Counted from the first letter of the stretch, positions 55,281 to 58,449 are shown. The stretch: 64,000 nucleotides of DNA from Escherichia coli (GCF_003790525.1 NZ_CP033635.1); one strand, 5' to 3'. Numbers and translations: made by a program. The notes: generated from the sequence alone by a model not told the origin.

Positions 55281-55327
55281 TATCTCCTGTAGTGAATTTC
55301 ATCATGTAGTCGAGGCGTAACAATCCT

Positions 55328-55516
55328 TTAATTATCAATATCATAAATTTCGCCACCACATTCAATCGCAACACTATGATATATATGGAATTCTTTAACA
55401 ATTTCCTTAGAGCCATAATACCAACCTTCAAGAGGCGCTTTTGCGATTAATCCTTGTTTTATACGTGTTTGGTTACCAGTTGAAAACTGCGCTATCAACT
55501 CCGGATACTGACTCAC
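55328..55516 (-). pseudogene. Orphan HNH DNase toxin tip fragment 2, truncated by a premature TAA
   Basis: GTG-initiated 62-codon ORF (V)SQYPELIAQFSTGNQTRIKQGL...EIYDIDN*; the next frame-continuous codons read RIVTPRLHDEIHYRR*, i.e. the lost end of the HNH motif. Confidence 0.65.
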
Positions 55517-55682
55517 CTCCAGCCAAAGGGTATCGGTGAAAGCGGGAAATTGATAAAATAACCTAATGAGATTTCAGTATTTTACCTGTTTTTTAAGAGC
55601 ACCCACATTATTATTTTATGTTATTAACATCATCGCATTAGCCAGACGCGATGATGTTCCATATATAGTTTTATTATCTACT

Positions 55683-55973
55683 TTATTTAGAGTCTTTAAA
55701 CAAGGGTAGCCCCTGTGAACGCCGCCATTCTTTGACAATTTTCAGGATGTTTTCAGGTTCATCATCTCCCTTCTTTGCAGGATAGTAGATAAGATCGCTC
55801 ATCAACGGATGTTGTGTAATTCTGGTAAGATGTTCTTCTAGATCATCCCAATATTTGTCAAGCTCTTCCCCTTTTAATTGAGCGTTATCCCCGGTTGGAT
55901 TTGTAAACTCGCCAAGCAACTCAATGAATTCCCGCTCTGTGTAATCTTCTATTTTATTTTTAAAATCATACAT
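55683..55973 (-). CDS. Colicin-E9-type DNase immunity protein (Im9-like), copy 2
   Basis: 96 aa MYDFKNKIEDYTEREFIELLGEF...TQHPLMSDLIYYPAKKGDDEPENILKIVKEWRRSQGLPLFKDSK. Confidence 0.75.
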   Translation of the reverse strand: MYDFKNKIEDYTEREFIELLGEFTNPTGDNAQLKGEELDKYWDDLEEHLTRITQHPLMSDLIYYPAKKGDDEPENILKIVKEWRRSQGLPLFKDSK

Positions 55974-56213
55974 TTAACTATCTCCTGTAATAAATTTCAT
56001 CATGCAAATGAGGTGTGCCCTCCTTAAATTATCAATATCGTAAATTCCGCCACTATATTCAATCGCAACACGATGATATATGTGGAATTTTTTAACGATT
56101 TCTTTAGTGCCATAATGCCAACCTTCAAGTGGTGCTTTTGCGATTAATCCTTGTTTTATACGTGTTTGATTACCGCTTGAAAACTGCGCTATCAACTCCG
56201 GATACTGACTCAC
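55974..56213 (-). pseudogene. Orphan HNH DNase toxin tip fragment 1, 3' frameshift
   Basis: 79-codon ORF homologous to the Hcp-ET C-terminus up to DIDNLR, then out of frame (RRAHLICMMKFITGDS); the -1 frame reads ...HLHDEIYYRR*. Confidence 0.65.
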
Positions 56214-56380
56214 CTCCAGCCAAAGGGTATCGGTAAAAGCGGGAAAATGATAAAATAACCTAATGAGGCTTCAGTATTTTTACCTGTTTTTTAAGAGCAA
56301 TCACATTATTATTTTATGTCATTAATATCATCGCATTAGCCAGATGCGATGATGTTCCATATATAGTTTTATTATCTACT

Positions 56381-56665
56381 TTATTTAGAGTCTTTAAACA
56401 AGGGTAACCCCTGTGAACGCCGCCATTCTTTGACAATTTTCAGGATGTTTTCAGGCTTATCATCTCCTTGACTTTTAGGGTAGAAAATGAGATCGCTCCC
56501 TGACGGATGCTGTGTAATTTCAATAAAATGATCTACTAATGAATCCCAGTACATTTCTAGCTCCTTACCTTTTAAGGATTTCCCATCTTTCATAGATGAT
56601 CTCAATCCGCCTAAAAAATTAAGAAATTCATCCTCGGTATAATCCTGGAGCTTTTCTTTAAACAT
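56381..56665 (-). CDS. Cognate DNase immunity protein (Im9-like), copy 1
   Basis: 94 aa MFKEKLQDYTEDEFLNFLGG...ITQHPSGSDLIFYPKSQGDDKPENILKIVKEWRRSQGLPLFKDSK, resembling colicin E9 immunity protein; immediately after the toxin stop. Confidence 0.8.
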   Translation of the reverse strand: MFKEKLQDYTEDEFLNFLGGLRSSMKDGKSLKGKELEMYWDSLVDHFIEITQHPSGSDLIFYPKSQGDDKPENILKIVKEWRRSQGLPLFKDSK

Positions 56666-56667
56666 AT

Positions 56668-58449
56668 TTATCTCCTGTAGTGAATCTCATCGTGTAGTCT
56701 GGGGGTAACAATTCGTAAATTATCAATATCGTATACGCTGCCGCCATATTCAATTGCAACACGATGATGTATCTGGAATTTTTTAACTATTTCTTTAGGG
56801 CCATAATGCCAACCGTCAATAGGTGCTTTTGCGGTTAATCCTTGTTTTATACGTGTTTGGTTACCACTTGAAAACTGCGCTATCAACTCCGGATCCTGAC
56901 TCACCTCCAGCCACAGCGCCTCGCGAAACTCATCAAAGGTTTTAAACTCCCGTCCGCGCAATTTATCAGCAATATGTGCCGGGATTGGTGCGCCGTTGCC
57001 GTTATTGGATACCGACATATCCAGCCAGCGAGTTCCTGGTGAAAGCGGGACGCCGCGCCCTGTTACAACACCAGGCAGCTTTCGCGGATCCTCCTTCAGG
57101 TAAACATAGATGGGCTTAATACCGGATCCCGCCGGAAAAACCAGAATATAATCGTTGAATTCTTTCGGATCAGGAACCGGGAATGGCGGCGTGCTATAGG
57201 TATCAGTGCCGTCCGGAATCGGCGTCACCAGAATGGTGGGCTGCTCCAGCGGCGGCCTGTCGTTACCGGTATGGCCCGGAACATTCCCATGTTCCGGATT
57301 TTCCGGCGTCCAGGTAATCAGGGGGCCATCGACATCGTGAGCGGGGGTAAATTCATAACGCTGCGTCTGCTCGTTCCACTGCATGTTCGCCACGCGGACG
57401 TTTTCATACGGCGTACCTTCACCCGTATGAACACCATACACCTGAGGCTTGCCGTGAATGTCAGTTCCCCAGAAAAAACGTACCCGGGTGGTGGCGGTAC
57501 TGCCTGCTAGTGCTTTCTGCTGCAGTTCTTCCTCATACCAGAACTCATCACGTCCGGGCACGCGAGCACTGCCCTCGCCCGCAGAGGGAATATACAAAGC
57601 AGATGCCAACGCACCGATGTAAGAGCCGCGGGTTGCACTGAGTATGCCACTGAGCGACCATTTTCCCCATATTTGAGCCGCCAATACGCTACCCGGAAAC
57701 AGTAGCATGGTTTGAGCTTCTGCGGGTTGCCCGACATCGTTAGCCTCGGGATGGTGGTATCCACAGCAGTCATCAACCACTGGCAGAGCAAAAATCGCTA
57801 CTTGCCCGAAGTTTTCAGCGGGTTCTTCTGCCGTTCCGGCATCTGTACATCCCTTCTCCTTCAGACAGGATTTGGCATAGACCGGTTTAACCGCTGGTGG
57901 AGAGAGTGGAAGGTTAACAACTGGTAGAGGCTCAGGGTTAAGATTACTGGCAGGTGGGTTTTTAGGTGGAATAAATAAGCTATTATGGCCAGCAGGAAAG
58001 GCCAACCAGTCAAATTCCGTATTGGCTATTAGATGTTTACATAATATGTAGTCATAATCGACAGTTACACATTCGGTAGGAAGATTATTGTCAGAAATGT
58101 TTACATGAATAGCAGTTAATGAAGCATTTCTTAGCTGAATATAATAATACCGTTCCCAGCGCCCGCTTTTATTTATACGATACAAATCGATTTCAATAAA
58201 TAACCGCTCATTCTGATTGATGGCATTAGACAGTAGCGGTGAGCTTTTATCAATGAGTTTGCAAAATTGTAGCCCCTGCAGATTAACGCCTTTACCAGTA
58301 CTGGTAATGGTGTTGGTGAGTGCAAAGGCAAAAATTTCATCTTCATGGCCAACCTGCCAGCGATTACCAACCGACGCATACGTCCCACAGCCTGAAGAAA
58401 TATCGCCCTGCTTCTCACCGATTATTCTCAGGTAAACAATATCGCCCAC
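56668..58449 (-). CDS. T6SS Hcp-ET effector: N-terminal Hcp domain, pyocin-S-like middle region, C-terminal colicin-E9-type HNH DNase
   Basis: 593-aa ORF (GTG start). N-term VYLRIIGEKQGD...GHEDEI...FCKLIDKSSPLL...LYRINKSGRWERYYYIQLRNA...TEFDW is Hcp-like; C-term GAPIPAHIADKLRGREFKTFDEFREALWLEVSQDPEL...FQIHHRVAIEYGGSVYDIDNLRIVTPRLHDEIH aligns with the colicin E9 DNase domain. Confidence 0.82.
   Translation of the reverse strand: MGDIVYLRIIGEKQGDISSGCGTYASVGNRWQVGHEDEIFAFALTNTITSTGKGVNLQGLQFCKLIDKSSPLLSNAINQNERLFIEIDLYRINKSGRWERYYYIQLRNASLTAIHVNISDNNLPTECVTVDYDYILCKHLIANTEFDWLAFPAGHNSLFIPPKNPPASNLNPEPLPVVNLPLSPPAVKPVYAKSCLKEKGCTDAGTAEEPAENFGQVAIFALPVVDDCCGYHHPEANDVGQPAEAQTMLLFPGSVLAAQIWGKWSLSGILSATRGSYIGALASALYIPSAGEGSARVPGRDEFWYEEELQQKALAGSTATTRVRFFWGTDIHGKPQVYGVHTGEGTPYENVRVANMQWNEQTQRYEFTPAHDVDGPLITWTPENPEHGNVPGHTGNDRPPLEQPTILVTPIPDGTDTYSTPPFPVPDPKEFNDYILVFPAGSGIKPIYVYLKEDPRKLPGVVTGRGVPLSPGTRWLDMSVSNNGNGAPIPAHIADKLRGREFKTFDEFREALWLEVSQDPELIAQFSSGNQTRIKQGLTAKAPIDGWHYGPKEIVKKFQIHHRVAIEYGGSVYDIDNLRIVTPRLHDEIHYRR

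Follow-up and report, generated by a model that had tools for sequence, protein, structure and literature searches.

The window, a stretch of 64,000 nucleotides of E. coli DNA, is 100% identical to E. coli SMS-3-5 and carries a 4.1-kb island (54719-58804, minus strand) inserted between pdhR (53764-54561) and aroP (58975-60348). The aroP-pdhR intergenic region of K-12 matches the window as far as 54718 and resumes at 58805; in this empty-site comparison, about 4.09 kb of island stands in place of 180 nt of K-12. The insertion site is identical in all sampled strains. The locus is PAIusp, the 'usp' toxin island of pathogenic E. coli, and the region studied here covers its 3' half. Indeed, it displays the aroP-pdhR intergenic insertion, a usp product of about 593 aa with a C-terminal colicin-type H-N-H nuclease, and, 3' of usp, three orfU/imu genes homologous to colicin DNase immunity genes, of which PAIusp has two, three or more. 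It is also nearly identical to reference uropathogenic islands, UPEC 536 having the same architecture and the same tip type, with 3/200 nt differing from SMS-3-5 in the tip. [quoted passage not shown]

All genes and features of the locus lie on the minus strand. The usp gene (hcp-ET3-4; 56668-58449) encodes 593 aa with Hcp, S-type pyocin and colicin-type HNH DNase domains, matched in Pfam by T6SS_HCP (residues 28-139), Pyocin_S (309-450) and Col-Pyo_DNase (460-591). Residues 1-146 match the Hcp1 model TIGR03344 with 122.6 bits (cut-off 58.9) and the RefSeq name of the product is tssD (WP_000502514.1); the protein has the N-terminal Hcp (TssD) fused to a C-terminal toxin domain by which an Hcp-ET is recognized. 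The same Hcp, Pyocin S and colicin DNase architecture is found in Hcp-ET3-4 (UTI89_C0121), and Usp is the same protein as Hcp-ET3-4. The first-pass annotation had pointed to the arrangement as occurring here on an Hcp-ET gene; the repeats described below are real but already known, since they belong to the long-known PAIusp/Hcp-ET3-4 locus, and do not constitute a new observation. The DNase domain (residues 460-591; 56677-57072; Pfam E 1.2e-41) matches the DNase chains of pyocin AP41, colicin E9 and colicin E7 with E from 1e-25 to 1e-29. Its HNH histidines 'HH' align with positions 102/103 of the colicin E9 chain, and its HH, N and H residues were aligned against both colicin E9 and pyocin AP41. 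Alignments to 1bxi, 2vlq, 4uhp and 1cei place the locus with the colicin E group, which combines an HNH nuclease of beta-beta-alpha-metal motif with an Im-type immunity protein. [quoted passage not shown] As a passage of the review PMC6730261 has it, Ma et al. 2017 reported T6SS-dependent killing by Hcp-ET3-4 of bacteria without the immunity gene, and 'three duplications' of the immunity gene behind it; by comparison, the three immunity genes of SMS-3-5 comprise one next to usp and two in orphan units.

The 3' end of usp and the sequence behind it are organized in three units. Unit A (56223-56913, 691 nt) comprises the last 81 usp codons, of tip type Tc, immunity gene 1 and a spacer; unit B (55526-56222, 697 nt), copies of which, 100-99% identical, were found in 826 genomes, comprises orphan tip 1, immunity gene 2 and spacer 2; and the incomplete unit C (54925-55525) comprises orphan tip 2, immunity gene 3 and a terminal hairpin. 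At its immunity-gene 3' end, unit C gradually loses its homology to the internal units (80% in segment s5, 45% in segment s6), and beyond this gene only the hairpin at 54930-54956 is still homologous. This terminal hairpin is followed by UUUU and is terminator-like (-15.7 kcal/mol, z -3.4). Spacer 1 (56223-56380), non-coding and AT-rich, contains a hairpin at 56327-56353 (-12.6 kcal/mol, z -3.7), and spacer 2 (55526-55682) one at 55629-55655 (-16 kcal/mol, z -4.2). Between the terminal and the internal hairpins one stem pair is changed from G-C to A-U, a compensatory exchange. Shuffled sequence gives promoter-like and terminator-like matches at least as often as the locus does.

The three immunity genes are intact and their products match the Im7, Im9 and AP41 immunity chains. 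Immunity gene 1 (I1, orfU2/imu; 56381-56665) encodes 94 aa and matches the immunity chains of pyocin AP41, colicin E7 and colicin E9 with E from 1e-15 to 1e-20; it is a 'bacteriocin immunity protein' in RefSeq (WP_000471928.1) and belongs to the 97/94-aa size class, matching orfU2 of strain Z42. Immunity gene 2 (I2, orfU3; 55683-55973) is an intact ORF of 96 aa, also a bacteriocin immunity protein in RefSeq (WP_000271873.1), and immunity gene 3 (I3, orfU1; 54984-55280) encodes 98 aa from its first ATG, or 96 aa according to RefSeq. These sizes (94, 96 and 98 aa) fit orfU2, orfU3 and orfU1 of Z42, so that in the nomenclature of that strain the SMS-3-5 order is usp-orfU2-orfU3-orfU1. The motif DLI(F/Y)YP, corresponding to the helix III Tyr motif of the four-helix immunity proteins in the colicin E group, is kept in all three immunity types.

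The recurrence of a conserved Val codon, from which tandem repetition of toxin-tip/immunity cassettes had been proposed, is borne out: in the full gene, the GTG of ...WLEVSQ... occupies 56904-56902, and this codon opens the listed ORFs at 56213 and 55516, with periods of 691 and 697 nt. A dot-plot-type self-comparison of 54562-58974 gave clear offset peaks, with 113 shared 12-mers at offset 698, 87 at 697, 55 at 691 and 53 at 1388, that is, 10-20 times the level of 50 shuffles, in which at most 5 were shared at any offset. Furthermore, the non-coding spacers (56223-56380 versus 55526-55682) are 94% identical; since they are repeated too, the repeat structure reaches beyond the coding homology. 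The immunity genes are nevertheless paralogues with a conserved 3' end, and one could suppose that nothing else is repeated than these genes and a DNase motif, or that the array is an assembly artefact, all the more as Tandem Repeats Finder reported no repeat at the locus. This silence is due to the longest period of the program, 500 nt. The spacers, the offset peaks, the 88-92% DNA identity of the pseudogenised tips and the presence of the structure in more than 1,000 independent complete genomes refute such an explanation, whose probability we regard as practically nil.

In a three-way alignment, the full gene and the orphans become highly homologous from the first base of the Trp513 codon (56911-56913). 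Over 60 nt past this codon (56913) the main gene and the orphans are 95-97% identical, and over 24-48 nt ahead of it the identity is 44-54%. Read on the plus strand, the flank is ccagccaCAGCGCCTCGCG in the full gene and ccagccaAAGGGTATCGGT in both orphans, which confirms that the orphans share a flank of their own, unlike that of the full gene. A sharp junction inside the DNase domain had also been claimed, and Trp513 does fall within Pfam residues 460-591, and its counterpart in the aligned colicin E9 DNase chain (134 residues) is position 58. The similarity of 44-54% ahead of the junction keeps the register and exceeds chance (p about 0.001-0.002 by composition-preserving shuffles), being the highest among all spacer registers, and the last ~48 nt of spacer 1 show weak in-register similarity to usp codons ~497-512. 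The junction is thus an identity step and not the absolute end of toxin-derived sequence. To judge by these alignments, the step now seen may mark where later homogenisation stopped and not where the original break occurred.

Both orphan tips of SMS-3-5 are inactivated. Orphan tip 1 (type To2; 55978-56222), without the Hcp part and without the first 52 residues of the DNase domain, carries a 1-nt deletion at about 56020/56021, which shifts the frame ahead of the last HNH histidines, and a His-to-Tyr substitution at 56076-56078, at the equivalent of an E9 metal ligand. Orphan tip 2 (type To3; 55280-55525) has an in-frame TAA at 55328-55330 and a His-to-Tyr substitution at 55379-55381; it is a mosaic, of Tb type in its 3' end from about nt 189 and of the Tc family in its 5' part. 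The lesions of To2 and To3 are identical in every sampled array. The orphan tips of SMS-3-5 are, then, dead remnants, both lacking a delivery domain and the first 52 residues of the DNase domain.

The island occurs in about 1,050 of 5,426 complete E. coli genomes. Across 1,052 genomes we counted 3,648 units, from 1 to 5 per genome with a median of 4; in a spread sample of 60, four units were present in 30, three in 27, two in 2 and one in 1. The copy-number variation for which the first-pass annotation had suggested looking is therefore present among strains. One such change can be followed at the nucleotide level: AZ167 (ST131-like) has the four-unit ST131 array minus exactly 1,397 nt, that is two units, the crossover lying in the I2 gene, within 126 nt of identical sequence, and the flanks being otherwise identical.

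Arrays were compared in detail for 11 sampled strains with 23 orphans, and tips were typed in 1,058 genomes, where only three discrete main tips exist: Ta (552), Tb (269) and Tc (about 240). Ta and Tb together are the main tips of 78% of the carriers; Tc accounts for about 22%, including SMS-3-5 and 536. The variable part of the tip (about residues 518-555) aligns with the immunity-binding region, or exosite, of colicin E9. Tip type does not go with the haplotype of the usp backbone, the three tips being found on unrelated backbones. For instance, XM (Tc) and FDA1253 (Tb) differ at 2/600 nt ahead of the junction and at 62/200 nt in the tip. The SMS-3-5 main tip, in turn, differs at only 4/246 nt from an intact orphan, Tc', of SSGNw1 and FDAARGOS_1253, so that one tip occupies both positions. 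A chimeric orphan, with the 5' part of To2 and an intact 3' end, is represented by 30 member sequences. As judged from these comparisons, tips change place between the main gene and the orphans, and both directions fit equally well.

The repeats had been read as C-terminal tip displacement and duplication of the kind seen in rhs and cdi loci. Arrays of rhs/cdiA orphans consist of a truncated toxin 3' end and an immunity gene, opening with a short piece of the conserved region; such orphans can match full-length tips elsewhere, and recombination with the main gene can swap the tip. Part of the reading stands, since tandem toxin 3' end/immunity units do follow an Hcp-fused DNase, vary in copy number and exchange tips. 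As in rhs/cdiA arrays, the usp orphans open with a conserved 'handle' (15-57 nt, 95-100% identical to the main gene). One tip is found in both positions, and tips are uncoupled from the backbone. Successive displacement, in which incoming tip-immunity modules recombine with usp in its conserved part, replace the tip and push the old pair downstream as an orphan, predicts more than this, namely orphans with their own junctions, each a former main tip paired with its cognate immunity gene. The handle agrees with it, as do the identity of orphan type Tc' with the main tip of other strains and the divergence of full-length alleles from +16 to +21, right beside the orphan junction. So does the Tb-type 3' end of the orphan before I3, Tb being the main partner of I3, which lies directly behind a Tb-type usp in SSGNw1, E23 and FDAARGOS_1253. 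However, all 23 orphans of the 11 arrays begin at one common junction, TGGCTGGAGGTGAGT, and share the upstream sequence ...CCCGCTTT(T/C)ACCGATACCCTT, single-base variants allowed, where different junctions and flanks would be expected. Ta and Tb, the predominant main tips, are practically never orphans (1,060 and 1,059 places in 1,058 genomes). The exosite segments of the orphans are 88-92% identical among themselves regardless of the immunity gene behind, and only 60-66% identical to Tb. Cognate pairing holds for Tc'/I1; for To3/I3 the exosite segment is only 61% identical to Tb, the partner of I3 in the main position, and for To2/I2 no full-length toxin partner of I2 was found among the 11 sampled arrays or the 1,058 tip-typed genomes. 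Successive displacement is therefore an unlikely origin of the array.

We also considered that the orphans might be maintained as a silent-cassette library from which usp switches its immunity-binding exosite by gene conversion, as in pilS/pilE; a strain doing so would escape its neighbours' immunity. Ta and Tc differ only in a patch of ~170 nt, from +21 to about +190, homologous to the immunity-binding exosite region of colicins; Tc-like donors are present at the same locus, and tip type and backbone are uncoupled. Moreover, codon 519 reads GAT in the Tc main gene, GAA in Ta and TAT in the orphan, GAT being what a crossover at +20 between Ta and an orphan would give, but a point mutation explains it equally well. 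Most exosite differences lie 5' of the To2 and To3 lesions, which a short conversion tract could therefore leave out. On the other hand, three discrete main tips leave little diversity to switch between, and the orphan exosites are only a few residues away from Tc. The His-to-Tyr substitution with a frameshift or stop in every array fits decay better than maintenance, and there is neither a dedicated recombination signal nor a recombinase nearby. A maintained library seems distinctly improbable. We rate as quite unlikely, too, the idea that the immunity-binding surface of usp is altered by short conversion patches from the dead remnants of its own array, which would serve as local donors, the Trp513 boundary being the fixed left edge of exchange and the Tc allele one product.

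The junction and flank common to all orphans, together with the reshuffling of copy number and tips, point to one old duplication followed by homologous recombination. We therefore consider it probable that the array arose, within the known PAIusp, by a single ancestral duplication and was then remodelled by ordinary homologous recombination among the repeats; the single origin is proposed from the 11 sampled arrays and summary counts over the 1,058 genomes. The duplication would have created the one junction of all orphans, each unit then consisting of a 246-nt usp 3' end that starts at Trp513, the immunity gene behind it and a hairpin-bearing spacer of ~160 nt. Unequal crossing-over would alter the number of units between 1 and 5. 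Crossovers or gene conversion would exchange segments where the sequence is conserved, in four places: the tip's 5' 'handle', the YDIDN core of the HNH motif, the immunity-gene 3' end (PENILKIVKEWRRSQG) and the spacer. By this homologous recombination, complete tips could also change between expressed and orphan position. The AGGAG in the final codons of the tip (..TAC AGG AGA TAA) is the presumed ribosome-binding site of the next immunity gene, and the immunity genes of the array would be reached by operon read-through. It seems that the immunity genes are the selected part of each unit.

The I1 type is found behind two different exosites, Ta and Tc, which would be surprising under a colicin-like specificity. 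It has been published that UspI forms a tight complex with OrfU1 and that any single Imu protein confers only partial protection. The usp DNase and immunity proteins are clear homologues of the colicin E2/E7/E8/E9 and pyocin S2/AP41 pairs (E 1e-15 to 1e-29). Unlike colicins and pyocins, however, usp relies on an Hcp fusion for delivery instead of receptor-binding and translocation domains, and its locus has several tandem immunity genes besides one immunity type behind two exosites.

Compared with rhs/cdiA arrays, the usp orphans are distinguished by their one junction and flank, by homogenised 5' parts and by being mostly inactivated. The break in usp is inside the catalytic domain, whereas it is set by a domain-delimiting motif (VENN, PxxxxDPxGL) in rhs/cdiA arrays. 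T6SS orphan immunity arrays of Vibrio cholerae and Bacteroidales hold immunity genes without an adjacent active toxin and vary between strains (PMC6730261). In the usp locus, immunity genes likewise accumulate 3' of the effector and vary between strains, but each orphan immunity gene carries a 246-nt toxin remnant and the tandem units are nearly identical. Relatives from other genera have their extra immunity genes only about 90-130 nt apart, and no long remnant was detected there. Since orphan immunity arrays and tip exchange are already established, nothing fundamentally new for toxin-immunity biology is found here.

As a virulence marker, usp is in wide use for extraintestinal pathogenic E. 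coli, and its island subtypes serve for typing. The site, the 593-aa HNH DNase Usp and the three immunity types (98, 97/94 and 96 aa) are those of the PAIusp accounts with which we compared the genomes. Those accounts give only usp and orfU genes, with two usp types and 'two or three' orfUs, whereas the genomes show three tips rather than two, up to four immunity genes in the arrays compared (unit counts reaching 5), and remnants of the usp 3' end between the orfU genes. Recombination among the ~0.7-kb units of the array accounts for the differences between PCR subtypes. Furthermore, copy number changes within clones such as ST131, and short-read assemblies will collapse the usp array.

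The repeat-bearing interval of the window is 100% identical to E. coli SMS-3-5 and corresponds to the island PAIusp, which, by comparison with the empty site of K-12, occupies 54719-58804 (4.09 kb) between pdhR and aroP. All genes of the locus lie on the minus strand: usp (593 aa; 56668-58449), three immunity genes of about 95 aa each (56381-56665, 55683-55973 and 54984-55280) and, between the immunity genes, two short ORFs whose first codon is the GTG of a ...LEVSQ... segment (56213 and 55516). Usp is composed of an Hcp domain (residues 28-139, above the NCBIfam Hcp1 cut-off), an S-type pyocin domain (309-450) and a colicin/pyocin DNase domain (460-591). 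Its C-terminus matches the DNase chains of pyocin AP41 and colicins E9, E2 and E7 with E-values of 1e-25 to 1e-29; in the alignment with the E9 chain, position 58 corresponds to Usp Trp513 and positions 102/103 to the Usp 'HH'. For the products of the small genes, the matches are Im7, Im9 and the immunity protein of AP41. The locus and the functions of its toxin and immunity proteins are already known, as are the variation of the immunity genes in number and order and two usp 3' types. Four PAIusp subtypes are distinguished by which 3' type of usp they carry and by how their 'two or three' orfUs are ordered, and PMC6730261 describes Usp, later renamed Hcp-ET3-4, as a T6SS antibacterial effector 'followed by three duplications' of its immunity gene. 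In strain Z42, orfU1, orfU2 and orfU3 encode 98, 97 and 96 aa, sizes that identify them with the immunity types I3, I1 and I2 of our typing, respectively. The third immunity gene of the window (54984-55280) has a possible start at 55280, giving 98 aa (MYMHD...) as for the orfU1 of the literature; the RefSeq product has 96 aa. Some usp 3' remnants carry the RefSeq names 'pyocin-S2/colicin E7-DNase domain-containing protein' or 'HNH endonuclease signature motif containing protein'.

The repeated toxin-tip/immunity structure is real but ordinary. The ORF list and sequence bear out the Val codon that the first-pass annotation saw recurring: GTG is found at 56904, 56213 and 55516, hence the same periods of 691 and 697 nt. 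In a self-comparison of 54562-58974, shared 12-mers accumulate at offsets 698 (113), 697 (87), 691 (55) and 1388 (53), with a maximum of 5 at any offset in 50 shuffles. Tandem Repeats Finder reported no repeat because its period limit is 500, and the k-mer offset analysis was used instead. The non-coding spacer 3' of the immunity gene also belongs to the repeat, its copies being 94% identical in a three-way alignment, so the tandem structure proposed at first pass is more than coding homology. A reading of this spacer as a degenerate 'tip 3' end plus immunity start' was dropped for E. coli, the local alignment not exceeding shuffles (p 0.03-0.99).

The same annotation placed a sharp junction inside the DNase domain, where the plus strand reads ccagccaCAGCGCCTCGCG in usp and ccagccaAAGGGTATCGGT in both short copies. 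Downstream of the Trp513 codon (56913), usp and these orphans, the 3' remnants of the gene, are 95-97% identical over 60 nt; over the 24-48 nt before it, identity is 44-54%. The upstream similarity is nevertheless in register and above chance (p ~0.001-0.002 in composition-preserving shuffles), the highest of all spacer registers, and the stretch upstream of the orphan junction retains the DNase pattern F-x-x-F-x-x-F-x-x-x-L. The junction therefore stands as an identity step at Trp513 but not as the absolute end of toxin-derived sequence.

The island is carried by ~1,050 of 5,426 complete E. coli genomes. A query with one unit, i.e., the 246-nt usp 3' end, the immunity gene and the spacer, found 3,648 places in 1,052 genomes (range 1-5 per genome, median 4). 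Among the 60 genomes of a spread sample, four units were present in 30, three in 27, two in 2 and one in 1. Full-length usp genes carry three discrete tips: Ta (552 genomes, ST131 among them), Tb (269 genomes; the uspI type, followed by I3) and Tc (~235-250 genomes, including SMS-3-5 and UPEC 536). Eleven arrays from 12 fetched loci were typed, leaving out Z22-2, whose array is lost. In E. coli Z22-2 (L007, 4494-5305), an IS1 adjoins what is left of the last immunity gene (99 nt) and, on its other side, a truncated htrE (Yad fimbrial usher); from this site the array, together with aroP and neighbouring genes, is displaced or lost, and a partial tssD-annotated match of 144 nt lies ~33 kb away (record positions 3542749-3542892).

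Comparison of the orphans in these 11 arrays revealed one start base and one upstream flank in 23/23 cases. The orphan preceding I2 (To2) always carries a 1-nt deletion and the one preceding I3 (To3) an in-frame TAA, each together with a His-to-Tyr change at the first HNH histidine. A third orphan type, found before I1 in SSGNw1 and FDAARGOS_1253 (Tc'), is intact and differs from the SMS-3-5 main tip at 4/246 nt. A word-indexed protein search for a full-length toxin with a To2-type tip, as a possible partner of I2, yielded nothing beyond short E. coli fragments and chimeras. The orphan exosites are mutually 88-92% identical, whatever immunity gene comes next, and the Ta and Tb exosites are nearly absent from orphan position (1,060 and 1,059 places among the 1,058 genomes). 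The junction and flank shared by all these orphans suggest a single ancestral duplication and not a series of displacements; the rarity of Ta/Tb orphans, the likeness of the orphan exosites and the constant lesions of the sampled arrays agree with this. With a single junction and flank in all 11 arrays, the tip displacement of rhs and cdi loci, to which the first-pass annotation had likened the array, is not borne out as a series of successive events.

In the scenario of one ancestral duplication, this event would have created the common junction, and unequal crossing-over with patchy conversion would have followed, exchange taking place in the handle, the HNH core, the immunity gene 3' end and the spacer, all four of them conserved. 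A clean deletion is seen in AZ167, which has the ST131 usp allele and two units only. Its array equals the four-unit ST131 array minus exactly 1,397 nt; the crossover maps to the I2 gene, inside 126 nt of identical sequence, and the flanks are otherwise identical. Segment typing shows the arrays to be mosaic: the HNH end of the tip, but not the exosite segment, goes with the immunity type, and the 3' end of the last unit is always ...DSE, whatever its immunity type. The differences between Ta and Tc are confined to a patch from +21 to ~+190, with identity beyond, and the divergence of Tb sets in at +16 and extends over most of its immunity gene. The I3 orphan combines a 3' end of Tb type with a 5' part of the Tc family, and in a chimeric orphan with 30 database members, the 5' part is that of To2 but the 3' end is intact. 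Furthermore, the tip type is uncoupled from the usp backbone, since 2/600 nt may differ just upstream of the junction and 62/200 in the tip; the reverse is also seen. Codon 519 of the SMS-3-5 Tc tip, GAT, is the expected product of a crossover between Ta (GAA) and an orphan (TAT); a point mutation accounts for it equally well. Between main tip Tc and orphan Tc', copying in either direction would fit equally well.

In the rare E. coli variants P0007 and P0002, the To2 remnant is fused in frame to the C-terminal half of the I2 protein or to other flanking sequence, showing further within-unit deletions in some strains. The intergenic region between aroP and usp (58450-58974) of SMS-3-5 differs from that of each of ten other sampled strains at 31-32/499 positions, with 0-6 differences among those ten, and the 5' part of usp is mosaic among strains. 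In the PAIusp literature other than two primary papers (Nakano 2001, Ma 2017), we did not find the one junction common to the orphans, a third type of tip, arrays of four immunity genes (or, in rare genomes, of five units), the fixed orphan lesions or the clean two-unit deletion of the ST131-like strain.

The immunity type I1 follows both Ta and Tc exosites, an arrangement that would not be expected under colicin-like specificity. Published immunity data are mixed: one study describes a tight UspI/OrfU1 complex from which OrfU2 is excluded, whereas each Imu alone gave only partial protection (PMC3917654).

A scan of other species recovered relatives in Citrobacter, Lelliottia, Enterobacter, Siccibacter, Lonsdalea, Salmonella diarizonae and others, though not the Salmonella bongori island of the literature. 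Relatives in other genera have several immunity genes, with no 246-nt toxin remnant detected among them. In seven loci (L016-L020, L023 and L025, from Lelliottia, Siccibacter, Enterobacter, Lonsdalea and Escherichia sp. E1V33), Usp is matched only from about residue 165 on, so the S-pyocin and DNase part seems joined to other N-terminal domains; L025 carries five immunity-like genes 3' of the toxin.

The last codons of the tip, TAC AGG AGA TAA, place AGGAG 7-9 nt before each immunity start codon, where it presumably serves as the ribosome-binding site of the next immunity gene; a piece of the toxin 3' end would thus have to travel with each such gene. This is supported by L013, the closest relative from another genus (an Enterobacteriaceae genome), in which no more than a ~30-nt tip-end remnant precedes the second immunity gene and which has the hairpin also present in E. 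coli. This stable hairpin, ATCATCGC..GCGATGAT, lies 20-30 nt 3' of each immunity gene on the minus strand of the window (56327-56353, 55629-55655 and 54930-54956) and between the immunity genes of L013 (8110-8136), with an alignment score of 34 against a shuffle maximum of 26. In the terminal copy (54930-54956), a G-C pair is replaced by A-U in a compensatory change, and UUUU follows; the internal copies have no such U run, as would fit a single operon. For the promoter, the literature gives the TyrR-activated aroP P3. An Rfam scan of the island gave sub-threshold chance matches only (PhrS, with 21 bits where the gathering score is 37, and one eukaryotic lncRNA) and none for the hairpin, and promoter and terminator scans gave matches no more frequent than in shuffled sequence. 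A promoter-like TTTAAA-16-GATAAT overlaps the ends of immunity genes 1 and 2 in both copies (56371-56398 and 55673-55700, minus strand); it is a match at consensus level only, of a kind rarer in the region overall than in shuffled sequence. The hairpin pattern search also picked up an ATCATC/GATGAT run at 46492-46523, which appears unrelated to the island.
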